IMG/VR virus record: IMGVR_UViG_3300023174_000144
Span: 10,472-74,471 of that record
Source of the DNA: a virus
Lineage: Duplodnaviria > Caudoviricetes
Reading direction: 5' to 3' (one strand)
Length of the DNA stretch: 64,000 bases
Each line of letters opens with the position of its first letter. Position 1 is the first letter of the stretch. Made by a program: the position numbers and the translations under genes. This document shows positions 24,832 through 56,324 of the stretch, in pieces. The notes under the pieces are model-generated. The model saw nothing but the letters and a program-made list of their open reading frames with translations. It did not search any database and was not told where the DNA came from.

Positions 24832-24867
24832 AAAAAATGTGTAATACTATAAAAGGTAAACAAAACT

Positions 24868-25506
24868 ATGATTAGCGCATTCAAACATATTCGTCTAAGT
24901 GGTCAAAACTTACTTCCAACATTTGATTCAACAAGTAATACTTTAAGACTTTCTCTTGGCAATACAGGATTAGCCTATTATCCAGAATTAACTGGTCTTA
25001 GTGGCTATTTAAGAGGTTTAATTCAAACAGCAGACGATGATGTAACGCGTATTAATGGTTTAAGTGGCGCAGTAACAATAACAGGCGGAGCAGGAGTATC
25101 GATAGGTATTAATTCAACAACTAATACAATCACAATTAGTGGTGCAGATAGTGGATATTTTCAAGGCTTAGTCGATACTTTAACTACAAATCTTGGTAAT
25201 ACTGGCTCTAATCTAAATATAAAAATAGATAATCTTAGTGGCTATGTTACAGGAACATTTGTTAGAAAATTAAATCAACAAGTATTTAATACTAATATTC
25301 CAGTTGGGATTGAAAGTACTGGAATATTGTTTCCATTAGCATTCTCTTCAACACCAAGCACAGTAAATGTGACTCTTGAAACTGCTGGCGATGTAATGTA
25401 TATGGTAGGAGTAAGAAACAGAAGTGCAACTGGATACTTTGCAGATTTCTCTGATATAGTTTTAGAGAATACTGTTAAACTCAATACATTTGCTAGTAAT
25501 CAATAA
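24868..25506 (+). CDS. fibre-associated protein
   Basis: Shares INGLSG..TITG and NLGNTGSNL..KIDNLSGYV modules with the flanking fibres. Confidence 0.75.
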   Translation: MISAFKHIRLSGQNLLPTFDSTSNTLRLSLGNTGLAYYPELTGLSGYLRGLIQTADDDVTRINGLSGAVTITGGAGVSIGINSTTNTITISGADSGYFQGLVDTLTTNLGNTGSNLNIKIDNLSGYVTGTFVRKLNQQVFNTNIPVGIESTGILFPLAFSSTPSTVNVTLETAGDVMYMVGVRNRSATGYFADFSDIVLENTVKLNTFASNQ

Positions 25507-25599
25507 TTAATTTGTGTAATCTACATTGATTTTACATATAATGTGTAAAGTCTAGTCTATCGAAAGATAGCAGATTGGGTAAAACCAACAAAAAAGATT

Positions 25600-40400: not shown

Positions 40401-42840
40401 AAAAATTGGAGGTACTGCACTTGGGGGCTTTGGTGGAGGTGGAGGTAGTAGTTTTCAGCCTGGAGAACAATTTAATGATCCAAGATATCAAGAACAAATA
40501 TCAAAACAAATTGAAAGCGCAATACAAAAACAAACATTCGATAGAGCTGCTATGGGAATTACCAGTCCATATCAATCGTATGGGGGCATGGGAGGATATG
40601 GCGGTTTTGATGGAAGTCAAATTCCATATTATGGGGCTGGATCAGGAATAAATGTAGGATTAGGTGCGCCAGCTGGATTATCAACATTTACTCAAAATAA
40701 AAGCTATCTAGAGCAATATCTCACACGACCAGCTATGCTTGTACCACCAACAGGATTAGTTACAAAACCTAATTTAATGATTTCTGGATTAGAAGGTTAT
40801 GGCTATGGACAAGGAAGCACATATGGTGGATATGCAAAAGGCGGAATTGTTAAAGGATATGCTGATGGTGGAGAAGTTAACAAATTTGTTAAAACATATT
40901 ATCCATACGCAGTTCAAGCTGCTCAAAGATTAGGCACATCTCCAGAAGCTATATTAGCTCAACTTGCATTTGAAAGTAATTATGGAAAATCTGAATTGTC
41001 TCAAAAATCATTTAACTTAGGTGGTATTCAAGCTCAAAAAGGTTATCAAGGACAAACAATATCAATGCCAGCGAATGCAGACGAAAGAGCTAGAGGAGAT
41101 TTTGCTCCAAAATCATATAGAAGTTATAATAATACAGAAGAATTTTTTAATGACTATGTGGGATTTTTATCTAAAGATAGATATTCTAAAACAATTGGAG
41201 TTGCTGATCCTGCACAAAGAGCTCAACTTTTATATGAAGCAGAATATGCTGGAGAATATCCAGGATATTCAAAACAAATTGCAAGCGTTGCAGGAAAAAT
41301 AAAATCTTTTTTACCTAATAATATAGCTGGTACAAATAATTCTGTTATAGCTGGTGGTGGATTACCATCTAGTGATCTTGTTAAAAAACCTTTAAATGAA
41401 GCATTTTATGCAGGATATGATGAATACATGAAAAACATGCTTTTACCAAAAGCAACCGCTATAGCAGAAACAAATGCTGTTACAAATGCTGTTACAAATA
41501 GTCAAGCGAAAAGTGCTAATTCTCCTGTAGGAAATTTGCGTGGAACAACACAAAATTTAGCTCAAAAGGCTTATTCTATGATATTTGATCCATTAGGTAA
41601 AGGTAAAAATGCATTACCTAGTATTTTTAGAGATGCAAATGGTATACCTACCATTGGAGCTCAATCTAATGCAAAAGCCGTCGGTCAACAATCCGTGAGT
41701 CAACAATCCGTGAGTCAACAAACCTCTAGTCAACAATATCCATGGGAAAATCCAAATCAATATCCATGGGAAAATCCAAATGCACCATCGTATGATCCAT
41801 CGTTTCCAATCAAAATGTTTCTTGATAAAATGAAGTCTGAGTCTCCTAGCCTTTATCAAAGTGTTGGAAATTTATATGAGCAAGTTGGATTAGCAAGAAA
41901 AAATCCTCAAATTCCATCTTATTTAAATAGATACTCATCATTTTATGGTTCAGGAAAAGATTATTATAACCCAGGAGGAATGTCAGGTTTTAATAATTAC
42001 ATGAATTACTTAGGTCTTGGATCAGGAACTTCATTAAGTTCATTATCTTCATTCCAATTCCCAATGACTCCTACAACTTTAAGTCCATATGCATTTTCAA
42101 GTTCTCCTTTTGGTGGTGGAGCAATAAGCTATGGAGCAGGAATTGCTTCTGCGCCTTCTACATATTTTTCAGCAGGAAGCAGGTTAGGAGCTACTCCAAG
42201 CTGGGCTAGCCGAGCAACTGGAGGAATGATTTATGGTGGAACTTCAGTAAAAGATGATGTACCAGCTATGCTTATGGGTGGAGAATATGTTGTAAGAAAA
42301 GATGCTGTAGATCGTTTTGGGCAACCATTTTTCGATAGATTAAATAGAGGACAAGTTACTGGATTTGCAGAAGGCGGACCAGTTGGAACTAATTTGCCAT
42401 CTTTAACTCAAAATTTAGGGCAAAACAATGGTCAGAAACAAGATAGTCAAACTCAAATGACAGATGCTTTGACTAAATTATTAAAATCTTTAGAGCAATT
42501 AAACCGATCAGTAGAAGACCAAACAAAAGAAATTCAAGACCAAAATCAAACAAGTGATAATGGAAATACTACATCATCATCATCAGATGGAATAACCAAT
42601 AACATTAATATAAATGTTAGCGTTGGTCAAGATGGTCAAGAAGGCAAGTCTTCTACAGATTCTAATTCAGAAGATAATGGAAAAGGTGGAAATGATCAAG
42701 AAAAACTCAAAAAGACATTAGAAAAATCAAGAATGTTTGCAGAATTATTAAGACAACAAGTATTAAAAACTATAGTAGAAGAACAACGACCAGGAGGAGT
42801 ATTGTATCAAGGCAGTAAAGGTCGTGATATGGGAAGATAA
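34471..42840 (+). CDS. tape measure protein with GH73/FlgJ-like muramidase and other inserted domains
   Basis: N-terminal TP901-type TMP core. GH73-like AILAQLAFESNYGKS...FNLGGIQA...YRSY at ~40885-41290. GFxPNF x4 and KDDVPAML..GEYV x2. Confidence 0.9.
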   Translation: MAGNIGDLQVNLSANTSPMERDVSAALKRLESKGFNFGAGINAKAFTQPLGRITGAANEFQKSLDASNARVIAFGASAGAIYSIQKAFTSLISSTIEVQKSLTDINVILGASQKTLGQFGDSLFKIAKDSGQAFSTVATAAGELARQGLSVEQTLKRTSDALVLARLSGLDAASSVEALTASINSFNTSALDSTQIVNKLAAVDSAFAVSSGDLAEALKRVGSSAQDVGVSFDELLAIVASVNQTTARGGAVIGNSLKTIFTRVQRTEVLDQLESLGVAVRDLNGNTAPAIQVLTGLASKFDELGAAQKSQVAELVGGVFQINILKAALGDLSKQYSVYGNALKISQGATDEATRRNEELNKTLSALLNRTVANLTKVGSDIGSLSFAPAIEKVLGGINTALEAFDVKGDSIGGKIGKGIFEGIGSFVSGPGLAILIGVFLKIFGNLAKFTTEAVRTVLGLNKEAQAQAQIQERINSILSQNPQLIQNILNKQVSLLQVEKDILTVIQAQSQARAQSTAIAASLTRGLIGRGVTSEKGVITAKTKSQGFIPNFNANKEMMGAISGGYMPGQVRSMNIPNYGRVTYNDAETVKQFSGLSQPGIMPPANSDAGKAYKEKFQNKYGINPYASSGFVPNFAAGIRPEVQQRIDKAIASGKLTTLTPNKTGVLSNISPEESAALERAKKTILATRSTNNPTKITKPFDATSLGVLSLRGKSGDLSTSTSLATLPMFSDAVKADPSIGLNTVQFNGVQVRSLDALGKQKPNEFIQLLTQQLLPPLANVATQFIGSALGNQGDGVNEVLGKLKNGKTFLPPGTIGDLFETVVKIATKNPTKFLQSVEDDFRRPFDFEESGAASGQFKSRFGFESSLIKADAKLTSDAGAIRSIIKKAYNSNLDGLPFKELLNAKIPKTSSKKNKSQGFIPNFSPIDRALSTEGKMGGKGVLDFQQGVGLYVRDGKTQPNFAAVMRDHPEGIGNAVQNSKKMQSMMSAGFIPNFAGFDPMSLFYIMQSIGGSGRAAGAELELEKSKLDAILKDRIAAQQLLKVEEAKEIKDQAQINYLKNEQQQLLSQENAQRATMNSQMGVFARDKGGKISGGFGGALGRFGSRYGAGLALAAPLLADTAAQFIGDENTRGGRALKSGISGLGTTASYAGLGFQVGGGYGAAIGGGAGLAIGIYDVFKKLNDIMPDVARRLETATEKFNNISAATQTMSVSLETLSSIEGRADLSAQTRVQLRTKAEEDFAKSIAQLNQVLPGAGKQITDLYARIGDTAELRQKITQLQTEAQKESKGLAASANLYTNNQKMNDLVDPKLYQQGALGAGKMLLQNMLPGNIGVAASLGVDLVSKDYIKGENKKGLQGAEKIQYDEQIKNGAYQLDQLFANFGKNGPLSSEEIGKLQAELKNAKGLDGIKKVVEAYTANGTYATVVAENLNALTKSGFADRLIQAFRDLKLEAERIQKAIADENQKLIGGQRKIADLESYGRAFGGQTPISAQALGRIDYSSLGEQANIARGQAFGDSAKSQFSQLMQEVGYSAENVQKFSQYNQEAANIQKDLINKTITLSQATERLKNLFSEVQFEKNAPFMFSGEKAAAQQSILEGKLRQGKIQEGLRPADSFFSNLGDNAATTADKINKSFANLASNLQTGFEDAFGAFIDGTKTADQAFQDMLLSISQQIIKEQFSIGMRSLLGGLTGGGGFGGTSDNSGGLLGGVFNSIFGGGKAQGGIIRKYSSGGHVQGGSGTKDDVPAMLTDGEYVLRKSAVNKYGKGMLDMLNSGGMVRGYASGGSISMGLANTFDIFDPQGNLVQNPIGPYALERTISSPEQLKNIPEYTGKYNISNLLSSYGMTREDNPMNDLRSENARTFQGYQQNVSSFKTSYNEAMRQVEEQRKQAQQQADEINSQAMAQYNRSLTNTFIGGLASAGLSAFGAISSLPKAPFGTGLQKLFGGAASGGSSGGSGGTYSLNGSGGMIADFLGKIGGTALGGFGGGGGSSFQPGEQFNDPRYQEQISKQIESAIQKQTFDRAAMGITSPYQSYGGMGGYGGFDGSQIPYYGAGSGINVGLGAPAGLSTFTQNKSYLEQYLTRPAMLVPPTGLVTKPNLMISGLEGYGYGQGSTYGGYAKGGIVKGYADGGEVNKFVKTYYPYAVQAAQRLGTSPEAILAQLAFESNYGKSELSQKSFNLGGIQAQKGYQGQTISMPANADERARGDFAPKSYRSYNNTEEFFNDYVGFLSKDRYSKTIGVADPAQRAQLLYEAEYAGEYPGYSKQIASVAGKIKSFLPNNIAGTNNSVIAGGGLPSSDLVKKPLNEAFYAGYDEYMKNMLLPKATAIAETNAVTNAVTNSQAKSANSPVGNLRGTTQNLAQKAYSMIFDPLGKGKNALPSIFRDANGIPTIGAQSNAKAVGQQSVSQQSVSQQTSSQQYPWENPNQYPWENPNAPSYDPSFPIKMFLDKMKSESPSLYQSVGNLYEQVGLARKNPQIPSYLNRYSSFYGSGKDYYNPGGMSGFNNYMNYLGLGSGTSLSSLSSFQFPMTPTTLSPYAFSSSPFGGGAISYGAGIASAPSTYFSAGSRLGATPSWASRATGGMIYGGTSVKDDVPAMLMGGEYVVRKDAVDRFGQPFFDRLNRGQVTGFAEGGPVGTNLPSLTQNLGQNNGQKQDSQTQMTDALTKLLKSLEQLNRSVEDQTKEIQDQNQTSDNGNTTSSSSDGITNNININVSVGQDGQEGKSSTDSNSEDNGKGGNDQEKLKKTLEKSRMFAELLRQQVLKTIVEEQRPGGVLYQGSKGRDMGR

Positions 42841-45800
42841 TTAAGGCTGATTTACAAATACAAAAGTTTGTTCTACTTTATCTGCACTACGATCTATTGA
42901 CACTATTCTTACAGCAAATGTTTGTCCATTATTAATCCAAGAAGCATATTTAGTAATTAAATTACCATACATTTCTTGTGAAAGTTTAGAGTATTTGAAA
43001 TCTGGCAAAGAAAGCATGATTGGATAACTTTTTACAACATCATCAAATTGATAAGTATCTATAAGATCTGAACCAGACCAATCACTAGATGTTATATTTA
43101 CATCATTTGTTTGTTTAATATATATTGCTACTTTGTATAAAGATACATCATGCTCTGGTGAAAAATTAATCATTGTATATAATGTGCTATTTTGTTTTGT
43201 TGGTTTTTTATAATAAATAACTTGATTACTTGCTGAATAATTTAAAGCTAAAAATCTCCAATTTAAAGATCCAATCACAAAAGTATTAGCTCCTACTATT
43301 TTACCATATGGTAAATCTATATTAAAAGATGGATCTTCATTATATGAGCTTAATATATAGAATTGTTTATATGGTACTCTTTGAAGAGATTTTAAATTAT
43401 CTTCAAGGCAACAGCCATCAACGCAGTCACTTGAATTTGTTAAAGATACATAATCTTTTGGGCAACTTCTTAAAAACATAAATTCATTACTTGAAGCATC
43501 ATTAGCAAAAAGATAATATTTTCCAAAATAAGGTACATCACCCTCATCTTCAAATATTTTTAACTTGGTAGGATAAATAACAAAAGATATAATCTTTTTT
43601 GAATCTACTATATTTGTTAAATTAACTTCTTTTCCATTCAATATGGGATCATTATCAATACCACAAGATGAAACAAATTTTGCTACAAAGTAATGATAAT
43701 TAATTCCATTTATTTGTTTAATGCCCTTTTCTAGAACTGTATCTGAACCAGATATTCCTTGCACAATAAAGTCTTCTGCATCTGGTAAGTCTAGTATAAA
43801 TTCTATTATAGAATAAGCATCTTCTTTTTGTGTTCCAGCACCCAAAACTTTAACAGAATAAATATTTTTTGCAGAAAACAATTTTAAATCATCACATACA
43901 TATTTAAAATCTCGAGTTTCTGGAGAGTCTACATCTCCAATGTTACCTGGATCCCAAACTCCAAGATAAGCAGGATTACTATTAATTCCACTAGAAGGCA
44001 CATCTTCTGGACAGGTTACATTTTGAGAACTTAAAGAGCTGTATTTATAACTATCTAAACATCTATATGTAGTATAATAAGAGTAATCATTAGGAAATGT
44101 ATTATTGATTAATTTTGCTTGAGATCTTGGGAAATAATTAAAAAATTGAGGTCCAGAAGCAAATCCATCTTTAACAAAATCTAACATTCTTGCTCCACGA
44201 TTATTCAAATAATCATTACAATAGTTTTCATCAGGCCAAGCTATATTTTTGTAACTTTCTGGGGTAAAGAAGTACACAAGACCTTGATAACTTGCTGCAA
44301 TTGTAGATGTATAAAGAGGATTTTGTTTAATACATTTTGTTAATGTTATATATTTATCTATTAGATTATTAGAATCAATAAATGCCCTTACTTGATCATT
44401 ATCAATCGCAGCATTAAATTGAGTCAAGAATGATCTAAATACAGAAGTTTGAAGTGCATTCATATAATATATTTTCATAGAGAATATAGTATCTTGAGGC
44501 AATAAACTATCTGGTGATAATTTTACAGTTAATTTATAAATTGATTGAGTTTGATCATCTATTCTTTCTACAGGATAGTTTTTAAGAGAGATGTTATCAT
44601 CTATATTAAATAAATCATCTATAAATATAAAATTATCTTCTCGGACTTTGTCTTGATCATTATTGATGTTTTTATTAAATTTCTGTGGAAACATAATGAT
44701 AGATTCTAATCCTATGTTTTCTGGTAAAAGCTCTTTAAATGTAAATGAAATATTTTCTGGAGTCTCTCTTTTGTAATTTTTAAATAATTTCAATACATTT
44801 GAGCGATCAATATTTACATGACTAATATTTAATAATTTATATCCTTTGTAATTTGTATATCTAGCTTCTTTAGTGCTTTCATTATACACATTTCCACCAG
44901 CAGAAGAGTTTCCACTGAAATCAATAGCTTCTATAACGCTATAATAATCGTTATAATATCCCACATTACTTACTTGTATAAATGATTTTGGAGAGTATCC
45001 AGATCCTGTTAAATTTTGAATTTGATTATTAATATAGCCAGAGATTGTTTGACTATTTGGATTAAAAAATGTTTGTCCTAAAGTTGTAATTCCTTCTACA
45101 TAAAATGTATTATTTTGAATATATGAATTTAAATTATCTTTTGCATTAAATATTAAAAATCTTGTATTTTCTCCTTTTGTTAGTTGTTGTCCACCAGTTG
45201 TATACATTGGTCCAACATCTCCAACGCTATAAGAGTTTAAATTAGTATTTGATGTTGAAGATGATGAATGATCATAATCTAATCTTCTAATATCATTTGA
45301 GAAGTTTTTTAATATAGTCTGATTTGTTGATATTGTTTCGTCTTTTGGTTTTGGTATAATTCGATCTAAAAATGTTATTTTTTTATCTACAAGATAATTA
45401 GCAAAATCAATATTTGTTGTATTTGGTACGTAATACTTAAATTCATCTGTAGTAGGAGCAGAGAAATCGAATTCCCATCCAACCACTAAATCACTTGAAG
45501 GATTGACAAAGCTTCCACCTGATATATCAGGAATCATTGAATTATATTGTTTTGAATAAAAATTAATGTTCTTAAAATTTATTTCTTTTATAGGATCTAG
45601 AATATTTACTATCCCAGAAAAAGCTTGTCCAGAAGATTCAAATCCTAATTGACTTTTAGAAAAGACTTGAAAGAAATAATTACCCGTGTTTTTTGGTATA
45701 AAAAAAGAAGATACATAACCAGAAGAATATATTGATTCTGCTATAAGATTTCTTCGGTCATTAGAATTTGGTAAATTACTTAAAGTATCTGAATCAGAAG

Positions 45801-45933
45801 AATATATTTTATATCCATTTTGATCTTGATTTTCTTCTGGCGGAGGGAATCTAAAAACAAAACCTTCAGCAAAATTTGTTATTTTAATTTTTTTAAATTC
45901 TACTATTGGTTGATCTGGTAATTCAGCACTCAT
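42841..45933 (-). CDS. tail tip/fibre protein, probably the detached FNIII/C-terminal part of gpJ
   Basis: Starts 2 nt after the J stop; N-terminus GYKIY...NYFFQVFSKSQLGFES is FNIII-like. Confidence 0.6.
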   Translation of the reverse strand: MSAELPDQPIVEFKKIKITNFAEGFVFRFPPPEENQDQNGYKIYSSDSDTLSNLPNSNDRRNLIAESIYSSGYVSSFFIPKNTGNYFFQVFSKSQLGFESSGQAFSGIVNILDPIKEINFKNINFYSKQYNSMIPDISGGSFVNPSSDLVVGWEFDFSAPTTDEFKYYVPNTTNIDFANYLVDKKITFLDRIIPKPKDETISTNQTILKNFSNDIRRLDYDHSSSSTSNTNLNSYSVGDVGPMYTTGGQQLTKGENTRFLIFNAKDNLNSYIQNNTFYVEGITTLGQTFFNPNSQTISGYINNQIQNLTGSGYSPKSFIQVSNVGYYNDYYSVIEAIDFSGNSSAGGNVYNESTKEARYTNYKGYKLLNISHVNIDRSNVLKLFKNYKRETPENISFTFKELLPENIGLESIIMFPQKFNKNINNDQDKVREDNFIFIDDLFNIDDNISLKNYPVERIDDQTQSIYKLTVKLSPDSLLPQDTIFSMKIYYMNALQTSVFRSFLTQFNAAIDNDQVRAFIDSNNLIDKYITLTKCIKQNPLYTSTIAASYQGLVYFFTPESYKNIAWPDENYCNDYLNNRGARMLDFVKDGFASGPQFFNYFPRSQAKLINNTFPNDYSYYTTYRCLDSYKYSSLSSQNVTCPEDVPSSGINSNPAYLGVWDPGNIGDVDSPETRDFKYVCDDLKLFSAKNIYSVKVLGAGTQKEDAYSIIEFILDLPDAEDFIVQGISGSDTVLEKGIKQINGINYHYFVAKFVSSCGIDNDPILNGKEVNLTNIVDSKKIISFVIYPTKLKIFEDEGDVPYFGKYYLFANDASSNEFMFLRSCPKDYVSLTNSSDCVDGCCLEDNLKSLQRVPYKQFYILSSYNEDPSFNIDLPYGKIVGANTFVIGSLNWRFLALNYSASNQVIYYKKPTKQNSTLYTMINFSPEHDVSLYKVAIYIKQTNDVNITSSDWSGSDLIDTYQFDDVVKSYPIMLSLPDFKYSKLSQEMYGNLITKYASWINNGQTFAVRIVSIDRSADKVEQTFVFVNQP

Positions 45934-45935
45934 AA

Positions 45936-48900
45936 TTAAATTTTATCTGTTTCCATAAACTTAGTTTCATCATATTCTAAAGCTGAAATTTTATATTTAT
46001 TTTCTTCTGTTTCTTCTATATCCAAAATTCTAAATTTCTGAGTTTGATCAATATATGGCTCTAATTGTGCTCCTAAATATGGCTTTTCTCTTTTTTCTAA
46101 ATTTTTTTCACTAAAAATACTAGGACTTTTTTCGTATTTGTATGTTTCTGGATCTAACTCAATTGTCCATACTGTATTTTGTAATAATGTATGTTCTACA
46201 TTATCTAAACTTCCAAGAAAATTAATTTTTGCATATCCACTATAATTAATTCCAGTTTCTTCAGTAACAAATGTTTGAAATGATAATCCACTAACTCCAG
46301 TAGTAGTATTAAAATTAATAGTTTGTACTTGTTTTCTTCTGATTGTATTGCTATCTGGGGTTTTAACAGGTATATTTTCGCCTTTTAAATTTATATTAAT
46401 GCTATCATTTTGTAAAGAAGAATTTTCTGAAATTTGATCCATAAAATCATTTGAATTGTCTGTGCCAATTTCTAGATTTCCAGCTGGCGTTAAAACATTA
46501 AATTTACAATCTCCAATTGCTGGTAAAAATCCAGTCATATCATTGTATTTTATATCAATAATTGCAGAATCTGTTCTTAATTGATATGTTCTTCCGCCAA
46601 GAATTTTATTTTGTCTATTTTGATCTTGTATCATAACAATATCTCCAGGTTTTAAATATAAAGCTGGAAGACTTGTTTCAAAAGATACAAGTTCTGACTC
46701 TGAATTTTCTGATAATAAAGTCCATTTTCCATATCTCTCAGCTTGACTTTCACTTGTGCATCCAAAAGCGCTCATTTCCATTTCTCTTATGCCATTTCTT
46801 AATATACCTTCTCTATTTTCTACATACTTAATAGCTGGTTTATAAAAATTGTCTTTATCATTATATCTAACTAAGGCTACATTTCTTCTTACTCTTTTGC
46901 TTGTGTTGCTATATGTAAATTCTCCTTCTTTGACATTTGAATTATTAAAAATATAAATTGGATCTTTAGGTTTATCTTGAGAAGCAAAAATAAGTCCAGC
47001 CGTATAATACACAATACCTCTAAAAATACTTGCCATATCATTTATTATTTTATAAGCATCTTCTCTAGTAGAAAAAAGAAGATTGCATGTAAACCTTGGC
47101 TCTACATCTGCTATTTTTGTTTTATCAACATCATTTGGAGTATTTGATCTTTTACTCTTAACTAATTCATCACAATATCTTGATATTTCATATAGAGTCC
47201 ATTTATCAACATATTTTGAATCAAAATACTTACCTAATCCAAATCTATTATTTGTAATCATATCATAAAAACACCAAGCTGGATTATCTGTCCAAGCTAA
47301 AGCGAATTCTCCATTCCAACTACCTTGATAAGTTCTAGTATATGGATTATAATTAGATGGAACTTTTACTTTTAATAGTCTTGTATCATAAGATCTCTGA
47401 GGTATAGTACTGAAGAATCTGGCATCAAAATTAGTTAAAATTGCAGCTGTATTTGGATATATTAATTTCTCATCGTATATTTCTGTAACAGAATCAACAT
47501 TTGCTTTATTAGCTATATTTATATCAACTGATTCAAAATGTAATGGGGTAATTTCTATTTCCCATCCTATTGTCTCTGGTAAGGAAACTTTATCTAAACC
47601 AAGCCATTCGAAACTTTCTATATATGCTCCTTGATTTAATTTTCCAACTATCTTTAAAACCCACGTATCTGATCCAACATTATAAGAATCTGCACTAATT
47701 TGTGATGCTGGAACTGGAGTTCCATCCCATTTAATATAAGAAATTTTTTGTGGTTCAGTGATGCTAGAATCAATTCTTTTAAGTCTCAAATAATAAAGCT
47801 GTGCATATCTATCTACTCTTCCAGTTGTTGTATTCTTTGCAGCATCTGCAGCACTTTCCCATATAGTTAAATCAACAATTTGTTTAAATAATACAGAAGC
47901 TTTAATATTTAATCTTAAACCAGATAAATTTTTAGTTAAAAGATTTATTGATTTTTTATATCTTATAATCTCTCCTGTATCTTGTATTTTTCTGGCTCCT
48001 AATAATTTCATTCCAGAAGTTTTTGTTTTTGAAATACTCTTAGGAATTCTAACTAATAAATTAGATTGATCATAATCTTTTATAATTTTAACATTTTTTG
48101 CATTATTTTCTTGAGTTGTTTGTTTTATATTAAGTATATCTGTTACTTTAGATCCTGGCGCTAATATCTTGGTATAAACTTCTTCTTTTAAATCTATATG
48201 TTTGTGCTGTCGTAAATTAGAATGTAAAGATGGCTTTCCTCCATTTGTATAACCTAATCTAATAAAATCAAAATTAAGAGATGCATTCTGCGGATATGTA
48301 TTATCTGCCAAAGGCGTTTCATTCCAATATATAGAACGAATTAACGGATCGGGTCCAGGATATTTTTCTATTCTTACTCCATTTTCGTATCCGAGCATAC
48401 CTTCTTTATTTCCTGGAAGTGGTATTATTTCGTAATCTGTTATTCCTTCTATTGGTCCTTCGCTGATAATATCTAATATAGATATATTTGTTAAAGTTGT
48501 TATACCAACATCTTCAGATTTTTTAGCTTCATTTATATATACAGTAGAGTAATTAGTCAATGTACGGTAGTCTTCTACTGTTTGGCCAGGCTTACATGTT
48601 GCTTGATTTGGTATGACATTTGCAAGATAATTAAATTGATCCTTTGCTCCAAAAAAAGAGATTGCAGTAGTTCGTGTTTTATTTGTTTTAGTTGGATAAG
48701 TGCATGTATAAATTTGATTGTTTGTTGCTATTTTACTTTTTTCATCTTCGGTGTATAAATATAATGTAAATGCTATTTGATTAACAAATTGAGGTTCTAA
48801 AAATGAACAATCTGCAGCTGGTACAATTCTACAAGTATAAACTCCTGCTTTTGTGGGTATACCATTAGGATATTTTAATTTGTTTGGATTGACTTTTAAT

Positions 48901-51275
48901 TTTTTAGCGTTGCTTTCACCAATTCCTGCAATATCTTTTTCTAATTTGACTTCTCCAATTAATGCTGGTGGAATAGTTATATCGTTATAAGAGCTTGGAG
49001 CAGAATAATAAGCTTGATATTCATTTAGTTCTTGGAAGTCGTCTATTGCCTTTTGGCTTGAGAAAAATGCCTTAATAGTTTTAGGAACTCTTTTTGCTTC
49101 TAATGGCTTACTTTCAGTAAAAAGAACATCAGGAATCAAATAGTCATCATTTTTGTTTTCAATTTTTTGATATGTTTCTGTTGGCAAATTAGAATAATAA
49201 GTTCCTACAGTTGTAGTTTTTCCAGCAATTGCCTTGTTTGGGTTCTTATTTGGTACATCATTTGTTGTATAAGATACTGATTGCGTTATGAATTTTCTAT
49301 TTATATCTCTAATAGTCAAGCTCATTAGTGCGCTTCTTAATTTAGAAACTGGACCATCTTTTTTGCCTCCACCTTTTGGAGCGGTAGGTGGTGTATAACA
49401 AACTTTTCCATTGCTATCTATTCTAGTATCTTCTCCAGCATCTATTACCATAAGAACATCAACATTAATTGATGTAGATGTATCAATATTCTTACCTTTT
49501 TTGGTGCTTCCAACAAATTTATATATTGTTAATCCTGTAACGGGATCTATTCTAGGTTTATCTTTTTTTAATCCAGTTCTACTATCTAAAACTGAATCTG
49601 TTTCTACTACCCAATTTCCAGCGCTTGAAGTAGGATCATCTATATAAACAAAAAATTTTCTACTATCAGGATTTGTAATATTTGAAAAAGTTATAGGTTT
49701 AGAACTATTTCTTGGTATAGGCTTTAAGATAGCATTAGCAGTAGCATCATTAAATAATCCGCCTAATATTCCTAATCCACTCTTTCCTAAACTTTGAGCA
49801 ATCGAACCATATCCTTTACCAGTTGCAGAAATTATATCTGACATTTTTGCAAATCTTACTATTGCATCTGAAGTAGGAGATAATGTAAGAGTTATTGTTC
49901 CATTTTGAACTGTAAATGCTGGATTAGAATATATATTTATGCTAGATGGAAAACTAGCAGAAGGTTTGATATTTTTTGTTTCATCTGGAGTAATATTTAA
50001 AGTTATATTAACTCCTGTAGATACTGCTTTATTATTAGCAACGTAACATGTGATTGTTTCATTAAATGCATGTTTTGGAGTTCCAGATATAACACCTGTG
50101 GTTCTGTTTAGTGATAATCCTTCTGGTAAATAATCAACAGCAAAACATAAATTACTTGCATTATTGTGTTTGATTGTTCCTGAAGATTTTTGATTAACAA
50201 CGAAATTAAAAGTTTGTGAAGGTGTTATGGTTGGGGTAGAGCCGCTAATTGTTCCTGTAACAATTTGTAAATTAAAATTAATACTTTGGCCTGAAGCAGC
50301 ATCACTATTAAATAATGTTATTGGTATTGAAGTGATAGTTATTAAATTTGATGGACTTTTTATAGTACCAGATATTTTTTTTGTTTCTTTATTAAAACTT
50401 AATCCTAATATACTTAATCTAGCTAATCCTTCATTATCTATACTAGCGTCCCATGTTCCATTTGATATATTTGTATTGATTGTATAATCTATAGTTGTGC
50501 CTGCTTGTGCTCTTATAATAGGAGCAGATGTACTTCTTATAGGATTATTTCCCAAAGAATCTTTACATTTAATTGTTAAAGTTTTAAAAGAATCAATTGT
50601 TATTGGTTTTTTATTTTTGTCTACTCCAGCAGTTAAGATGCTAGCATTTAATTGAACTGTATAATAACCAACTTTGGAGACTGGTTTATCTGAAGTCCAT
50701 AAAGTATCTGTAGCTATAGTTTTTGATGGATCAGTACTTGCAGTTTTAAATTGTAAATAAGTTTCAAAGCTTTCATTTCTTGATATATAATAATATGTTA
50801 CTGCCTGAGCGGAATTTATTGTATATGAAAATAACTGTCCTTTAGTTGCATCTGCAAATCCAGAAGTTGTAATTTTTGCTGGAACTAAAGAAGTTTCACC
50901 AGCGGCTCCTCTTAATATCGTTCCATCTGCAAAATCAAATACAAACCAAAATCCTTTATTTCTATCAACTCCTTGTATTGAACCTCGGGATATACCATCC
51001 TGAACTTTATTAGTATTATTACTTGGATTCAATGCTGGATTATAAGCTTGGACTAAATCAAGAAGATCTGCGTCTACATCTAATCCTGTGCTTACATCAG
51101 TAATTTCATCTTTCTTTGGGTCGCCAAGATCATTAAAAAAAGGAATTACTTCATCATTAAAATAAGTATTTTTATCATTATCAAAGTTATGTCCATTTGC
51201 GCCTCTATATGCAATACCTTCAATGTATTTGTTTGGATCACAATCTTTACACCTTTTAGCGTTATCTGCAGCCAT
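45936..51275 (-). CDS. central tail fibre / tip attachment protein (lambda gpJ-like) with N-terminal Ig domains
   Basis: YPNTAA, VKVPSNYNP.TRTY.G.W.G.F..AWTDNPAWC.YD, EPRFTCN, DMASIFRG; He_PIG-like LPEGLSLNRTTGVISGTP. Confidence 0.88.
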   Translation of the reverse strand: MAADNAKRCKDCDPNKYIEGIAYRGANGHNFDNDKNTYFNDEVIPFFNDLGDPKKDEITDVSTGLDVDADLLDLVQAYNPALNPSNNTNKVQDGISRGSIQGVDRNKGFWFVFDFADGTILRGAAGETSLVPAKITTSGFADATKGQLFSYTINSAQAVTYYYISRNESFETYLQFKTASTDPSKTIATDTLWTSDKPVSKVGYYTVQLNASILTAGVDKNKKPITIDSFKTLTIKCKDSLGNNPIRSTSAPIIRAQAGTTIDYTINTNISNGTWDASIDNEGLARLSILGLSFNKETKKISGTIKSPSNLITITSIPITLFNSDAASGQSINFNLQIVTGTISGSTPTITPSQTFNFVVNQKSSGTIKHNNASNLCFAVDYLPEGLSLNRTTGVISGTPKHAFNETITCYVANNKAVSTGVNITLNITPDETKNIKPSASFPSSINIYSNPAFTVQNGTITLTLSPTSDAIVRFAKMSDIISATGKGYGSIAQSLGKSGLGILGGLFNDATANAILKPIPRNSSKPITFSNITNPDSRKFFVYIDDPTSSAGNWVVETDSVLDSRTGLKKDKPRIDPVTGLTIYKFVGSTKKGKNIDTSTSINVDVLMVIDAGEDTRIDSNGKVCYTPPTAPKGGGKKDGPVSKLRSALMSLTIRDINRKFITQSVSYTTNDVPNKNPNKAIAGKTTTVGTYYSNLPTETYQKIENKNDDYLIPDVLFTESKPLEAKRVPKTIKAFFSSQKAIDDFQELNEYQAYYSAPSSYNDITIPPALIGEVKLEKDIAGIGESNAKKLKVNPNKLKYPNGIPTKAGVYTCRIVPAADCSFLEPQFVNQIAFTLYLYTEDEKSKIATNNQIYTCTYPTKTNKTRTTAISFFGAKDQFNYLANVIPNQATCKPGQTVEDYRTLTNYSTVYINEAKKSEDVGITTLTNISILDIISEGPIEGITDYEIIPLPGNKEGMLGYENGVRIEKYPGPDPLIRSIYWNETPLADNTYPQNASLNFDFIRLGYTNGGKPSLHSNLRQHKHIDLKEEVYTKILAPGSKVTDILNIKQTTQENNAKNVKIIKDYDQSNLLVRIPKSISKTKTSGMKLLGARKIQDTGEIIRYKKSINLLTKNLSGLRLNIKASVLFKQIVDLTIWESAADAAKNTTTGRVDRYAQLYYLRLKRIDSSITEPQKISYIKWDGTPVPASQISADSYNVGSDTWVLKIVGKLNQGAYIESFEWLGLDKVSLPETIGWEIEITPLHFESVDINIANKANVDSVTEIYDEKLIYPNTAAILTNFDARFFSTIPQRSYDTRLLKVKVPSNYNPYTRTYQGSWNGEFALAWTDNPAWCFYDMITNNRFGLGKYFDSKYVDKWTLYEISRYCDELVKSKRSNTPNDVDKTKIADVEPRFTCNLLFSTREDAYKIINDMASIFRGIVYYTAGLIFASQDKPKDPIYIFNNSNVKEGEFTYSNTSKRVRRNVALVRYNDKDNFYKPAIKYVENREGILRNGIREMEMSAFGCTSESQAERYGKWTLLSENSESELVSFETSLPALYLKPGDIVMIQDQNRQNKILGGRTYQLRTDSAIIDIKYNDMTGFLPAIGDCKFNVLTPAGNLEIGTDNSNDFMDQISENSSLQNDSININLKGENIPVKTPDSNTIRRKQVQTINFNTTTGVSGLSFQTFVTEETGINYSGYAKINFLGSLDNVEHTLLQNTVWTIELDPETYKYEKSPSIFSEKNLEKREKPYLGAQLEPYIDQTQKFRILDIEETEENKYKISALEYDETKFMETDKI

Positions 51276-51276
51276 A

Positions 51277-52593
51277 TTAAGATGTTAATGAAGTTGTTGA
51301 CATGTCTTCATTATTTATATTTGTTATCTTTACTGGATATCCTCTTGTGTTAAAATAATAACTTTTAGATGGATAGCTGAGATCTCCTCCTGGGTCTCTT
51401 TTTGGTTTACCAACCTGTTTGCCTTCTGTTTCAAGATGAGATTCTCTTGATTGAATTCTATAATATTGATCGTAAGATGCAAAAACTTGATGACTTCCTA
51501 TAATAAGTCTTCCATATCCTACTGGAACAGGTCCACCTTCTCCAACCGTGTTAACTGGTCCATTAAATAAATAAGAGGGTTCTCCTCCACCACCATTTGG
51601 AGAGCCACTAAAATCTGCAGAAGGATTGGCTATAGCGGCTGGACTTACCATTGGAGGTGGTTTAGATAACATTAAACTAACTCCAACAGCAACTAGTCCT
51701 AAAATTGCTGGCATCATCATTTGTAGTGTTAATCCAGCAAATACTTGAGTTCCTGGAATAATAGCTAATATAACAGCTAAAAAAATAGCTATAATACCTT
51801 TCATCATTCCTCCTCCACCTTTACCACCTTTGCCACCTCCTCCATTATGAACTAAAATTTCTTCAGCAATATATGTATGATGATCTTTTACATGCATATT
51901 ATAAACATCTTCATAACCATCTTCTTCTATTCTTTCTATTGGTAAAACATCTCCACTTTGATGTATTAATATATCTCCTATTTTAAAATTTGACAATGGT
52001 GCAAATCTATTGTGTTCATTTAAAAACCAATGATTTTCTGTTGCACGTATAGTTTTGCCTCCCCACAAGGTAATTTTTAATATTTTATTTTTTTCATGGA
52101 AAAAAGTTTCTTCGACTACAGATGTTTTAATATTTTTATCTTTATCAAAACAAAGAATCTCATCTCCTGCTTTAAAATTTTCTATATTTTTATTTCCATT
52201 TGGAGTAGATATTTTAATTCCAGCTGGAAAACATCCTCCTCCACCTCCACCGCCACCACCTGCGCCTTCAATAACTGGAATTATATCAATTGAAGAAAGC
52301 TTGTCGTTTTCAAACGGCATGTTCAATTCTGAATTTCTTAATGAATCAATATGTTTTTTTGTTAAATCTTTATTTTTTTGAGGTAAACTTTCTATGTTTG
52401 GTACCCATACAGATCTATTATTAATAAATATCTCATATTTTGCTTCATTTTGTGCTTGTTGAATAAGGTATTTTATCAATTTTCCAGTATTAGCTTCTAT
52501 AGCTCTTATAGCTTCTGAAACACTGTTCACTTTTAAATTCCATTCGGAACCAATTTGATCACCTAAATCACCATGTAATGTAACCTTTACCAT
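51277..52593 (-). CDS. tail assembly protein gpI-like with inserted Hint domain
   Basis: MVKVTLHGDLG...EAIRAI...IIPVIEGA Ubl N-terminus, C-terminal PVPVGYGRLIIGS, Hint CFPAG...VYN..V..HHTY....LVHN. Confidence 0.88.
   Translation of the reverse strand: MVKVTLHGDLGDQIGSEWNLKVNSVSEAIRAIEANTGKLIKYLIQQAQNEAKYEIFINNRSVWVPNIESLPQKNKDLTKKHIDSLRNSELNMPFENDKLSSIDIIPVIEGAGGGGGGGGGCFPAGIKISTPNGNKNIENFKAGDEILCFDKDKNIKTSVVEETFFHEKNKILKITLWGGKTIRATENHWFLNEHNRFAPLSNFKIGDILIHQSGDVLPIERIEEDGYEDVYNMHVKDHHTYIAEEILVHNGGGGKGGKGGGGMMKGIIAIFLAVILAIIPGTQVFAGLTLQMMMPAILGLVAVGVSLMLSKPPPMVSPAAIANPSADFSGSPNGGGGEPSYLFNGPVNTVGEGGPVPVGYGRLIIGSHQVFASYDQYYRIQSRESHLETEGKQVGKPKRDPGGDLSYPSKSYYFNTRGYPVKITNINNEDMSTTSLTS
51844..52233 (-). 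other. 130-aa Hint (intein-like) domain, Cys121-Asn250
   Basis: Block A CFPAGIKI, block B ATENHWF, C-terminal VHN followed by Gly; no endonuclease domain. Confidence 0.88.
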
Positions 52594-52594
52594 A

Positions 52595-53344
52595 TTAAAT
52601 CATGCTCCTATGCCTGACGATATATTTCGTATGTTTTCGATAAAAATCGTCATATATATTTACACAAGAAAAAGAATTATATGGATGGTGTAAAATCGTA
52701 TTATTTCCTATATTCATTGCGCAGTGAGTAGCATACACTTCAGAAACGTTAGGAAATAGCATAAAAAAGGCATCGTGCTTTTTAAAAGGGGTATTTTTAT
52801 CTAGCTTAATAAAATTTTGTTTTTCAAAAAAATCTTCATATATAGAATTTATATCTTTTAAATTTTTTGGATATGCTATTTCTTTTGGGCAATATATTGA
52901 AACATTTAATTCTTTTTTGTAATAGTCTATAGCCAAAGAGAAGCAGTCTGAAACTTCAGTGATGTATGGTCTGCCAATGTATTTATTTTTGTAAGTATTT
53001 GGATAATACATATTGAATATGTCATTTTTTATATTATAGAGTATAAATGTTATATTATGTTTGTTACTATTTAACATATCTATTTCGCTAAATTCATTAT
53101 TGTCGTTATTATGAGAATGAAAACAAGCAACAATTTTACCTAATTGACTACATTTTAAATACTCTAAAGAAGATATTGAGAAGAAGTTTTTTTTATCAAA
53201 TGCTATATTTTTACAAGAATATATATTAAATTTTAATTTTTTTTCATCAAAATATATTAGACCACAAGATTCTATATCTTTTCTATTATTAGATAGATCT
53301 TTAATTTCATTTTTTAATGAACTATTAAAATCTATATTAATCAT
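52595..53344 (-). CDS. tail assembly protein gpK-like (JAB + NlpC/P60)
   Basis: ESCG...FHSH...FSEID JAB motif; DCFSLAIDYY and HCAM..G...LHH NlpC/P60 motifs. Confidence 0.85.
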   Translation of the reverse strand: MINIDFNSSLKNEIKDLSNNRKDIESCGLIYFDEKKLKFNIYSCKNIAFDKKNFFSISSLEYLKCSQLGKIVACFHSHNNDNNEFSEIDMLNSNKHNITFILYNIKNDIFNMYYPNTYKNKYIGRPYITEVSDCFSLAIDYYKKELNVSIYCPKEIAYPKNLKDINSIYEDFFEKQNFIKLDKNTPFKKHDAFFMLFPNVSEVYATHCAMNIGNNTILHHPYNSFSCVNIYDDFYRKHTKYIVRHRSMI

Positions 53345-55758
53345 GATCCACCTTGAGATTGTTGAGTCCTATATTTTCCTTCTGCTGAAGGGAATCCACC
53401 AAATGGAAGAATACCTAATAATCTTTCGTTATTTTGATCAATAGGAGGACGAATAGTTTCTGCAGAAATATCTTCTTGCACGTTTGCGTATGCACTGATG
53501 CCAGTAACAAAATCCGACCTTTCAACAAAATATGAAATTTTAACTGATTCAAAATTAAAATTATTTTTCCATCTTAATTTACATCCATTTAAAGTTTTAG
53601 AACATGTATCATGAAACCAATATCCAGTATTTGGTGGAGCATTTACAGAATTAGATGTATGATTTTTATTACATACAAAGTAATAATTTAGTTGATTTTT
53701 TTGTACATGTACGAAATTTCCAGATTGATAATTAAAATCTTTATTCCAATGGCCTAGGTCTTTCCATGCTGATCCTGCAGTATTTCTTGTTGGAAAAAAT
53801 TCATTATCGTTTTGATCTGCTACAGGTGGAGCAGATAATAGTCCATATGTTAAATTATTTTCATTTAATTGACTAATCTGAGATAAAGATTCGTTATCTG
53901 CGGTCCCTCCTATAGTTGTTGTGCCTGTAGCAATAGGTATATTTTTTAGGCCAACTATATTCCCATATACTCCAGAATGTTTTTCTGTAAGTCTATCGAA
54001 TCTTTCATAAACGCAACCTTCTCCACGATAATGAAATGGACAATTTTCAGACAACAAAACTCTACCTGGAAGCTTTACTCCTTCTATATCTAAAAGAGAT
54101 GCAAGTTCATATACAGCATTTGTAGAATCTTCTTGAATCTTTCGATCTATGTAAAAAATATCTGGAGTTAATTCTACTTCTGTATTAGAAACGCTTTTAT
54201 ATGTTACCAACTCTTCATCAGATACAGAGCCAAAATTATAAAAATTAGAAAATGTTTGTGTTATTCCAGTAGGAGTACTTAAAACAGGTTGATAATCTGT
54301 TGCAATAAAATTAAATGTATGAGTATTTAAATTTGTAGTTCCAGATGCGTAAAACTTAAAACCTGAAGTAGTAATATTTCTTAGTTCTGTAATAAAATCT
54401 AATTTATTAGCATTAGAATTTGAATTAAATAATATTTTTGGTTGATAATTTGTGAAAGTAGTTGGATATGATACTGAAACTTCTCCAGTATTATTTGCTC
54501 CAAAATTCACAGACTGTTTTAGAGCTAATAATTTTACGTCTTCATTTGTGTCTGGATTTCTTCCTGTATAAAATCCAGTTTCTAAAGCTAAATAATTTAT
54601 ATAGTAATTTCCGCTTAAGTAATTGCCGCTTGGATTAGTAGAAAAATTAATATCAAAACTAGTTGTTTGTTGATTTGATGTATTATATTTGACTAAAGGA
54701 GCAGGATCTAATTGATTAAAATTCAATTCTTTTTGTGTTAGCTCTTGAGTTTGCGTATAGATTTGACCACTAGATCCTATAGAAATAAAATTTACTAAAT
54801 TACCAGTATTTGAAAAAGCAGTTGGATATTGTATTGTTATTCCACTTTCATTGACAAATTTTTTTGTTTTAAAATTAGCCATTAATTTAAGTTGATTAGA
54901 AGTGCCATTTAATTTAAATTCATTTTCATTTTTATAAATTAAATTAGAAAAACCATTTTTATTACCAGAAAATATAAAAACATCTTGATAAAAAATAGGA
55001 TTATCAGTGTTTGTCTCTAAAATATTAGTATTTACATAAATATTAAAGAAATTTTTAACTTCTTTTGGAGCAAAAAAACTACAATCTTGAGATTGTCTCA
55101 ACAATTTGTCATTATAAATTGATTTTACATTAAAAAATATTATATTTTTTTCTCTATCAGCAACTGGTTTATAGTGATAATTTATCCATTTATAACTATT
55201 TGCAGAAGGAAATTGATTTGTTCTTACTGTTAGTGTGTCTCCATCTCTGGAAGCCCAAGGCGCATCATCATATTCATTAAATGGATTAATTCCACCTATA
55301 AAATTACTTCCAGCAAGATATCTTAAAAATGTTTTTCTTCTAATTACTTTAGCTCCAACAATATCTTTTAATTCATTCATCTGCATTCTGATGTATTTAT
55401 AAAATGAATTATATTGATCTTCTAAGAATTGACTGGAAAATTTAATTTTTGGAGTAGGCAACGAGCCATTAGATGTTATATCAAATCCTTCTCCAAAGAT
55501 TGGGAAAGGATAATAAAGTTTATCTTTCCAAATAATTATACCACGATTGACATTAAATAAATTATAATCGTTATGAATTCGAATTACTCCATCTGAGAAA
55601 ATGCTATGCTCACCAAAATTTATCGTTACAGGTTGAATATCATTCAAATCAATTTCATATAAAAAAATTGGACTACTTGGTTCTAATTCATGTATATGAG
55701 TATTTATATCCCTTTGAGATTCTAATATTTCTGTAAAAATCGTATTTATATCTGCCAT
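53341..55758 (-). CDS. minor tail protein gpL-like with large insertion
   Basis: LYEIDL, PTPKIKFS, GAKVIRRKTFLRYL, FYIDRK, CPFHYRGEGC, TCSKTLNGCKLR, LPFGGFP. Confidence 0.85.
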   Translation of the reverse strand: MADINTIFTEILESQRDINTHIHELEPSSPIFLYEIDLNDIQPVTINFGEHSIFSDGVIRIHNDYNLFNVNRGIIIWKDKLYYPFPIFGEGFDITSNGSLPTPKIKFSSQFLEDQYNSFYKYIRMQMNELKDIVGAKVIRRKTFLRYLAGSNFIGGINPFNEYDDAPWASRDGDTLTVRTNQFPSANSYKWINYHYKPVADREKNIIFFNVKSIYNDKLLRQSQDCSFFAPKEVKNFFNIYVNTNILETNTDNPIFYQDVFIFSGNKNGFSNLIYKNENEFKLNGTSNQLKLMANFKTKKFVNESGITIQYPTAFSNTGNLVNFISIGSSGQIYTQTQELTQKELNFNQLDPAPLVKYNTSNQQTTSFDINFSTNPSGNYLSGNYYINYLALETGFYTGRNPDTNEDVKLLALKQSVNFGANNTGEVSVSYPTTFTNYQPKILFNSNSNANKLDFITELRNITTSGFKFYASGTTNLNTHTFNFIATDYQPVLSTPTGITQTFSNFYNFGSVSDEELVTYKSVSNTEVELTPDIFYIDRKIQEDSTNAVYELASLLDIEGVKLPGRVLLSENCPFHYRGEGCVYERFDRLTEKHSGVYGNIVGLKNIPIATGTTTIGGTADNESLSQISQLNENNLTYGLLSAPPVADQNDNEFFPTRNTAGSAWKDLGHWNKDFNYQSGNFVHVQKNQLNYYFVCNKNHTSNSVNAPPNTGYWFHDTCSKTLNGCKLRWKNNFNFESVKISYFVERSDFVTGISAYANVQEDISAETIRPPIDQNNERLLGILPFGGFPSAEGKYRTQQSQGGS

Positions 55759-55763
55759 AATTC

Positions 55764-56324
55764 TTATCCAGATACTTCATCAAATTTTGCGTTGATTGTA
55801 TAATTTTCTTTAAAATTAAAATTTGTCTCCCACTCTCTACATACATATCTTGTTCTATAAGTTTGTTCTGAGTATATGGTTGGTGGATCATATGCAAAAG
55901 CTTTTGTTGCAGCTTTATCTTGCAAGAAATGAACAATAGAATATGCTTCTTTTTCTGTTTTTAATTCGAATTTTAATTGAAAAGTTTTTAAATCTGGATT
56001 GATGTTTTTATTTATTCTTTGTTCGTATCCATTACCAAATCTTATTACAGTAATTAAGGGTTTATGACTAGTAGTTGATGTGTAAGATGCCATCCAAAAA
56101 AACTTAGGTATTTTTGAAGTATCTTGAAGGATAGTTACTCCATCCCAATATTCAAGGTTTAATTTATTATCAATACTTGGAATAGTTGTAGTGTCCCCAC
56201 CTTTTTCATGATCTTTAACAGCATAATAAAAATTATTTTCATGTTTTACAATATCATTTTTTGTAAATTGATAGGATGAACCAAAATTCACCCAATTCCT
56301 TATAGGATCGTTAATAGACGGCAT
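55764..56324 (-). CDS. minor tail protein gpM-like
   Basis: VIRFGNGYEQR...AFAYDPP...YVCREW...INAKFDEV. Confidence 0.8.
   Translation of the reverse strand: MPSINDPIRNWVNFGSSYQFTKNDIVKHENNFYYAVKDHEKGGDTTTIPSIDNKLNLEYWDGVTILQDTSKIPKFFWMASYTSTTSHKPLITVIRFGNGYEQRINKNINPDLKTFQLKFELKTEKEAYSIVHFLQDKAATKAFAYDPPTIYSEQTYRTRYVCREWETNFNFKENYTINAKFDEVSG

Follow-up and report, generated by a model that had tools for sequence, protein, structure and literature searches.

An intact type-A bacterial intein-like Hint domain in the glycine linker of the tail-tip protein gpI of an uncultured lake phage

Type-A bacterial intein-like (BIL) domains, the lambda-like pair of a gpI with a ubiquitin-like (Ubl) domain and a gpK with a JAB peptidase domain, and the fusions of Ubl and BIL domains found in ciliates are each known separately. 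All of them bear on a single gene, that of the tail-tip protein gpI, in a stretch of 64,000 nucleotides (the window) which spans positions 10,472 to 74,471 of the IMG/VR virus record IMGVR_UViG_3300023174_000144 (Caudoviricetes). This uncultured lake phage has, in the glycine linker of gpI and directly behind the Ubl domain, an intact Hint domain of the type-A BIL class.

The TAPI family, to which gpI belongs, was defined as a Ubl domain with a conserved C-terminal glycine, a Gly-rich linker and a C-terminal domain, and the JAB domain of its partner TAPK (gpK) was predicted to cut after the Ubl (Iyer 2006, PMC1779556). In lambda virions only the C-terminal part of gpI is visible, as a trimeric plug with hydrophobic helices, described as H1 and H2 in PMC11101478, in the lumen of the tail tip, while the N-terminal domain is unseen and gpK is absent (PMC10721106, PMC11101478).

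Type-A BIL domains form a thioester at their N-terminal junction and cut their C-terminal junction by asparagine cyclisation. Although they lack a nucleophile at the first downstream position (+1), they can then join their flanks through an attack of the freed amine on the thioester, with cleavage products predominating (Amitai 2003, Dassa 2004 and Aranko 2013, as far as they are reported in PMC4031507 and PMC7664689). In the Tetrahymena BUBL locus, according to the account that PMC8616854 gives of Chiarini 2021, the domain BIL2, which lies between Ubl domains, forms an isopeptide with a lysine ε-amine and conjugates ubl4 to ubl5 or Ras without ATP. Our literature search turned up no report of such a domain, BIL or Hint, in gpI, in any other phage tail-tip protein or behind a prokaryotic Ubl.

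Architecture of gpI and identity of its Hint domain

The window gpI is a protein of 438 aa (open reading frame 51277–52593, minus strand) and lies between gpK and gpJ in an M-L-K-I-J tail-tip block. From the N-terminus it consists of a β-grasp Ubl, a glycine run to G120, the segment C121...H249-N250, the +1 residue G251 within the linker GGGGKGGKGGGG, two hydrophobic helices and a conserved C-terminal part. An earlier note on this DNA had described a Hint fused behind the gpI Ubl, and its coordinates, residue numbers and motifs proved correct, its span of 51844–52290 covering the Hint, the poly-glycine and the last Ubl strand.

The N-terminal domain (residues 1–110, 52264–52593, minus strand) is a Ubl, as the earlier note had said, and belongs to the MoaD/ThiS/SAMP type of β-grasp domains. 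Residues 1–115 match phrog_32, ‘tail assembly protein’; an AlphaFold2 (AF2) model of residues 1–112, built with 28 homologues, has a pLDDT of 78.6; and the ten best VIA-align matches of this model are all MoaD, SAMP1, CysO or Urm1 β-grasp proteins (Z 6.5–7.8 over 69–78 residues). Foldseek gave this model no match at E ≤ 0.001, its weak top rows being Urm1, SAMP and MoaD. The domain ends in ..IPVIEG, within the sequence ..IDIIPVIEGAG; G110 is invariant in full-length alignments and at least 90% conserved in A3, with rows ending near that position. The poly-glycine that follows (52234–52263, minus strand; G112–G120, with A111 tentatively included) is encoded by GGN repeats, places Gly120 at the −1 position, and is a run of ten (Gly111–120) when the G of EGAG is included, or of nine after that G.

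The 130-aa insert, residues 121–250 (51844–52233, minus strand), is a type-A BIL Hint domain without an endonuclease. It contains C121 (block A), T185-E-N-H188 (block B) and H249-N250 (block G), and scores 48.6 bits against the Pfam family PT-HINT (PF07591; cut-off 27.7, E 1.2e-12) as opposed to 31.7 bits, below the cut-off of 35.8, against Intein_splicing. Among Protein Data Bank (PDB) sequences the best phmmer match is 2LWY, a ‘bacterial intein-like domain’ of C. thermocellum (E 1e-14; E 4e-17 with a profile). The AF2 model of residues 121–250 (pLDDT ~80–95) also retrieves 2LWY first in Foldseek (TM 0.86, rmsd 1.7), with the horseshoe β Hint fold, then BUBL1 BIL2 of Tetrahymena (6Y75/6TMM, TM 0.75–0.78), and then mini-inteins. 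The Hint that the earlier note had placed from C121 to VHN250 is real and looks catalytically complete.

Comparison with the described Hint families places the domain closest to the type-A BILs. It shares with them, and with 2LWY as its best match in both sequence and structure, the Hint fold, Cys1, the block-B TxxH, the C-terminal His-Asn, a length of ~130 aa and the lack of both an endonuclease and a +1 Cys, Ser or Thr; a Hint profile scores 65.8 bits for a bacterial type-A BIL vs 46.6 bits for BUBL BIL2. Unlike type-A BILs, which are hosted in the variable region of secreted bacterial proteins or toxins, it sits in the glycine linker behind the Ubl of a phage tail-tip protein and has stereotyped flanks, with Gly at −1, Gly or Lys at +1 and a Lys nearby. 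The canonical mini-inteins of phages (gp41-1, 6QAZ) are similar in size, fold, blocks A, B, F and G, and in being present or absent among close relatives, but the gpI Hint differs from them in its non-nucleophilic +1 residue, in its Intein_splicing score below cut-off and in being inserted in a low-complexity linker and not in a conserved active site. With G251 at +1, gpI has none of the residues (Cys, Ser or Thr) that mark a canonical class-1 intein at this position.

Downstream of the Hint lies the Gly/Lys linker GGGGKGGKGGGG (51808–51843, minus strand), in which G251 is the +1 residue and K255 the first lysine. It is followed by the counterpart of the lambda gpI helices H1 and H2 (51664–51807, minus strand; AF2 helices at residues 262–277 and 283–309), and then by the TAPI-C domain, which includes KPPP...GEGGPVPVGYGRLIIGS..., and a variable C-terminal tail (51280–51663, minus strand). 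TAPI-C is a homologue of the lambda gpI tail-tip plug: a profile of this part matches the PDB chains 9l9p_A, a ‘tail assembly protein’ (E 6.7e-9), 25vf_9 (E 7e-7) and lambda gpI 8iyk_I (E 0.0023), and phrog_4554 is a further match. Pfam's own gpI model gave no match to the window gpI.

The adjoining gpK gene (52595–53344, minus strand) encodes an N-terminal JAB/MPN+ metallopeptidase domain and an NlpC/P60-like domain and matches phrog_30, ‘minor tail protein’ (E 8.5e-49), with Pfam scores just under the cut-offs for both Prok-JAB (24.5 bits vs 25) and NLPC_P60 (22.8 vs 23). Its JAMM motif is intact, as the earlier note had reported together with the NlpC/P60-like half, and comprises E25 and, from residue 76, HSHNNDNNEFSEID, in which H76-S-H78, S86 and D89 form HxHx7SxxD. 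The locus resembles the lambda gpI/gpK pair (PMC1779556; 8IYK, 8XCG) in its Ubl, Gly linker, hydrophobic helices, TAPI-C plug, adjoining JAB and NlpC/P60 gpK, and M-L-K-I-J gene order. Lambda gpI, like most homologues, lacks a Hint in its linker and is 223 aa long as opposed to 438 aa here.

Conservation, spread and turnover of the Hint

A word-indexed protein search, with clustering at 90% identity, yielded ~28 clusters of full-length gpI proteins which are 50–95% identical to the window gpI and contain a Hint at the same site; it also gave Hint-less relatives of ~295 aa that have the same Gly/Lys linker (P0030–34), plus many gpI proteins of ~250 aa without that linker. Longer gpI homologues (P0143, P0181 and others) have C-terminal β-propellers or gpJ fusions, not further Hints. 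In the 29 aligned Hint-plus sequences G120, C121, T185, H188, H249 and N250 are all invariant, and none of the 29 Hint-plus loci in IMG/VR contains a decayed copy of the domain. With 11 pairs pooled, pN/pS reaches 0.17 in the Hint, compared with 0.125 in the Ubl and 0.09 in TAPI-C. Together, the invariant catalytic residues and this pN/pS value indicate that the gpI Hint is not degenerate. The JAMM motif of gpK is likewise kept in 19/19 distinct gpK proteins from Hint-plus loci, as it is in Hint-less loci.

The flanks of the gpI Hints follow a pattern. Position −1 holds Gly and in rare cases Ser, and the His-Asn pair is followed in the window's clade by GGGGK (once GGAGK) or GGGGGK, with the lysine at +5 or +6. 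At +1, where the earlier note had seen Gly in this gpI, no homologue with a Hint has a nucleophile: all 28 sequences of the window's clade have Gly there, and P0126, a distant third gpI lineage whose Hint occupies the same junction without a Gly spacer (EGSG/C...HN/KG), has Lys. The earlier note had concluded that canonical splicing is not expected. This conclusion stands, but the step from there to an absence of splicing does not follow, as type-A BILs can splice by amine attack.

The gpI stretch recurs in contigs of at least nine other studies of lake or fresh water, so the Hint insertion is not an assembly artefact. One of them is identical to the window over 51277–52220, which takes in all but the first few Hint codons, and a natural variant that is ~97% identical (run X7) keeps the Hint and has one additional Gly codon in each flank (at 51822 and 52233), which shows that the length of the Gly run varies within the population on both sides of the Hint. 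A contig of run X2 appears to join 51839 to 52240, skipping 400 nt that correspond approximately to the Hint; it was not counted as a Hint-less variant, as the shorter side of the join comprises only 21 letters within GGN repeats and may be the Gly linker of a relative. Among the public runs listed as holding the gpI stretch there was no RNA data set. A tblastn search of 50,697 cultured-phage records found no cultured relative of gpI, although matches may have been lost to the low-complexity filter, and gave Hint-only matches of ~30% identity in unrelated proteins.

Presence of the Hint is labile among these relatives. Lineage A Hints are 68–76% identical to that of the window, whereas lineage B Hints (P0025–28, which contain two insertions) are 39–44% identical to it in host proteins whose TAPI-C is 80–84% identical. 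In a tree of the Hints, A and B form separate, well-supported clades, but in a tree of the host protein without the Hint, from which the row of P0019 was disregarded because its ‘none’ label is wrong, alleles of all three kinds, with A, with B and Hint-less, are intermixed in a single clade, which requires at least 5–7 changes of state. A search of representatives at 50% identity merged the gpI proteins with A and B Hints into one representative and therefore gave no count of either, but it exposed P0126, the gpJ-type Hints and the bacterial tandem Hints described below. The survey of homologues that the earlier note had proposed shows that the Hint is found at the same site, conserved and not degenerate, but it is labile and interleaved with Hint-less alleles. 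In the DNA, GGN direct repeats flank the Hint, including the same 12-mer, ggtggaggagga, on both sides, and these repeats would offer a simple route to its loss and exchange.

The same family of Hints is also found in gpJ. Many Hint-plus phages have a second type-A BIL between an N-terminal extension of ~700–950 aa and gpJ proper, with Asn, Thr or Arg at −1 and Gly, Met or Arg at +1 (L003:5319-9314, L004, L006, L009, L016, L022, L023, L024 and L029). The window gpJ (45936–51275, minus strand; 1779 aa) has an N-terminal extension of ~860 aa, as seen by BLAST against relatives, and matches Pfam Phage-tail_3 and He_PIG; it is contiguous and Hint-less at that junction (~residue 860), as are its closest relatives L001 and L002. 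In another group (L034–L044) gpI is Hint-less and gpJ has an N-terminal Hint after a leader of 16–28 aa (..GAG/C...HN/KGG..), and precise Hint-less alleles of this gpJ N-terminus (..GAG-GGK-..) occur in the related phages L064–L068. For example, gpJ reads ..KILRGAG/Hint/KGGGGGSCTP..PPDPHTP in L038 and ..KVLRGAG-GGK-SCSP..PPDPHTP in L064, and the 19-aa leader is conserved in both, a conservation with and without the Hint that fits re-ligation. Each type of insertion site forms its own clade in the Hint tree. In P0123 and P0135 two Hints of the N-terminal type stand in tandem ahead of gpJ.

Flank statistics were drawn from 199 Hint domains among the matches of the exhaustive search. Of these, 80% have Gly at −1 and 86% have a Lys within the first six downstream positions; at +1, 67% have Lys, 18% Gly and 3.5% Cys, Ser or Thr. 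Several proteins (P0122, P0124, P0125, P0127, P0128 and others) begin with a hydrophobic N-terminus resembling a signal peptide, followed by three to five tandem Hints of the form G/C..HN/K(G)n, to which P0122 adds a Gly-rich stretch and a hydrophobic segment. These tandem-Hint proteins have a polyprotein-like array that recalls the ciliate BUBL loci. Tandem runs of three to five such domains are present in some bacterial proteins.

Processing of gpI and the competing explanations

We favour, as probably but by no means certainly correct, the reading that the gpI Hint forms a glycine thioester and excises itself by BIL-type amine ligation, by cleavage or by both. The course of events that we infer would begin, in a precursor of 47.5 kDa, with an attack of C121 on the carbonyl of Gly120, an N-S acyl shift aided by T185 and H188 that would produce the Gly thioester. 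N250, aided by H249, would then cyclise and free the C-terminal part starting at G251, and the Hint would leave as a 15-kDa by-product. If the α-amine of G251 or the ε-amine of K255 attacked the thioester, the flanks would be joined into a gpI of 32.5 kDa by BIL-type splicing; hydrolysis of the thioester would instead leave a Ubl-Gly10 of 13 kDa and a plug part of 19.4 kDa. The two routes would converge on the products of the Hint-less relatives, a free Ubl and a plug part, as a re-joined gpI would be an ordinary substrate for the gpK JAB, cut after the Ubl, while in a cleaved gpI the Ubl would already be separate. The plug part would then be built into the lumen of the tail tip. The data themselves show what the domain is, that its catalytic residues are intact, that it is under purifying selection and labile, and that a JAB is present, whereas all the chemistry and the fate of the products are inferred. 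Such an element could be tolerated in the gpI linker, and repeatedly gained, swapped and lost, because the linker is flexible and probably destined for cutting anyway.

Several observations argue for self-removal. The residues of the N-terminal side (C1 and TxxH) and those of the C-terminal side (HN) are both kept, which suggests that the reactions at both junctions are needed. Hint-less relatives with the same linker and a JAB-containing gpK interleave with Hint-plus ones, the family behaves like inteins at several sites, with precise empty alleles, the sequence upstream of the gpJ Hints is conserved, and either outcome of processing would give the products of Hint-less relatives. The interleaving of Hint-plus alleles, Hint-less alleles and a second Hint lineage, together with the precise empty alleles in gpJ, is the pattern of a self-removing, intein-like element and not of an indispensable conjugation device, and it speaks against the self-activating Ubl system that the earlier note had envisaged.

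An unlikely alternative, though one that deserves weight, is dedicated autoproteolytic maturation, in which the Hint would be kept to cut the Ubl and itself off the plug without re-joining, supplementing or replacing the JAB cut. Type-A BILs yield chiefly cleavage products (PMC4031507, PMC7664689), and PT-HINT is described by Pfam as releasing modules in polymorphic toxins. In addition, the tip lumen, where only the C-terminal part is seen in lambda (PMC10721106), is unlikely to have room for three gpI chains that each keep a 15-kDa Hint and a Ubl of 13 kDa, and purifying selection on the Hint is strong. However, although a single cut would suffice for this purpose, neither of the two junction chemistries varies, and sister alleles without a Hint are common. 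In gpJ the short leader is conserved whether or not a Hint follows it, which would be unexpected if it were discarded. The JAMM motif of gpK is undecayed in all Hint-plus loci, and for this reason a replacement of the JAB by the Hint was rejected. At the other extreme, the Hint might be an inactive relic that the mature protein retains as a spacer or decoration, a view to which its lack of a +1 nucleophile and the possible tolerance of a low-complexity linker for extra mass lend some colour. We regard this as very improbable, given catalytic residues that are invariant over ~50% divergence of the host protein and across independent lineages, a pN/pS of 0.17 and intact copies at every one of the 29 loci.

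Somewhat less probable than dedicated autoproteolysis, in our judgement, is a ligation of the BUBL kind that would need neither E1 nor ATP. The Hint thioester would transfer the Ubl through its Gly tail to a lysine. This acceptor could be K255 in the GGGGK flank, a reaction in cis that would yield a branched gpI, or, in trans, a lysine in a tail-tip protein, and the gpK JAB would serve as the isopeptidase that takes the Ubl off again later. The layout Ubl-Gly/C...HN/(G)nK mirrors the Tetrahymena BUBL locus, BIL2 of which is the second-best structural match of the gpI Hint and scores ~46 bits with the profile. As in the ciliate loci (6Y75/6TMM; Dassa, Yanai & Pietrokovski 2004 and Chiarini 2021, as far as these are reported), a Ubl stands directly before a BIL that has no +1 nucleophile and has a lysine downstream, although in the window ten glycines separate Ubl and Hint, whereas P0126 has no spacer. 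The position of this lysine, at +5 or +6 in the window's clade and at +1 in P0126, the family-wide frequency of lysine at +1 and within +6, the better conservation of the Hint than of the Ubl, and the invariant JAMM of Hint-plus phages, in a class of enzymes that are typically isopeptidases, all fit such a scheme.

The comparison with BUBL also has its limits, and the distribution of the Hint points the other way. Unlike BUBL, gpI belongs to a phage and not a eukaryote, is a single unit and not an array, has a Ubl that is MoaD/SAMP-like and not ubiquitin-like in sequence, and continues into a Gly/Lys linker and the TAPI-C plug rather than a further Ubl that supplies the lysine; the Hint itself is closer in sequence to bacterial type-A BILs, and conjugation is demonstrated for BUBL but putative here. 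Close Hint-less relatives share both the linker, including its lysines, and gpK, so the Hint is dispensable there and conjugation is not required for this tail-tip design. The Hint has also often been gained, lost and swapped, and its family is found in gpJ behind a leader of 16–28 aa or a non-Ubl extension of ~700–950 aa, and so is not tied to a Ubl. As the lysine is also present in empty gpJ alleles (L064, ..GAGGGK..), it may belong to the insertion site and not to catalysis. The earlier note had proposed that the Hint could activate the Ubl glycine without E1; a thioester on Gly120 does follow from the chemistry of the family, but its fate cannot be read from sequence. Nothing found points to a target or acceptor among tail proteins, lipids or small molecules, or to any link with host Ubl-type defences, both of which the earlier note had suggested. 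Conjugation of the Ubl without E1, with gpK as deconjugase, is chemically plausible by the precedent of BUBL, but nothing in the present analysis supports it.

Against self-removal as the whole explanation it can be said that sequence alone does not separate splicing, cleavage and conjugation, and that cleavage may dominate here as in other type-A BILs, which would make full re-ligation a minor route. Within lineage A the Hints are 68–76% identical to that of the window vs 53–61% for the Ubl, and conservation of the Hint above that of the Ubl exceeds what a merely tolerated passenger needs. The three independent Hint lineages at the junction of Ubl and linker could reflect a selected function and not a permissive site, and the family-wide signature of Gly at −1 and lysine in the downstream flank hints at lysine chemistry, as in BUBL. 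Finally, lambda gpI is not known to be cleaved.

The tail-tip block and the meaning of the Hint

The genes beyond gpK complete the tail-tip setting of gpI. Those for gpL (805 aa) and gpM (186 aa) occupy 53341–56324 (minus strand) and match Phage_tail_L (92 bits) and Phage_min_tail (70.3 bits) of Pfam. The gpL protein (53341–55758) is much longer than typical Phage_tail_L proteins, its match to this family being N-terminal and followed by a large insert with a weak match to H-type lectins, and Cys motifs close to its C-terminus resemble the Fe-S site of lambda gpL. The whole block (42841–56324, minus strand), in which a 1030-aa open reading frame precedes J, I, K, L and M, meets head-on a tape-measure gene (34471–42840, plus strand; 2789 aa, with a glucosaminidase domain), their stop codons abutting. 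As these two units lie on opposite strands, the M-L-K-I-J segment has the reverse orientation when compared with H-M-L-K-I-J in lambda. Upstream, at 23374–28395, are the genes of two probable fibre or receptor-binding proteins, one of 485 aa with collagen repeats and one of 931 aa with baseplate repeats of the BppL_N type.

Whatever its products, the gpI Hint marks the junction between Ubl and plug with a predicted self-processing domain, and in this way provides a handle on the roles of the gpI Ubl and the gpK JAB in tail assembly. If the Hint does no more than remove itself, its small size, natural Gly flanks and many natural variants would make it a BIL well suited to the study or engineering of nucleophile-free ligation, and it would show that intein-like elements settle in linkers which are cut anyway. 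If instead the Ubl were ligated to lysines, the phage would have the first E1-free system of Ubl conjugation from a bacterial virus; the BUBL system of ciliates would then have a counterpart among prokaryotic viruses, at work in tail assembly.

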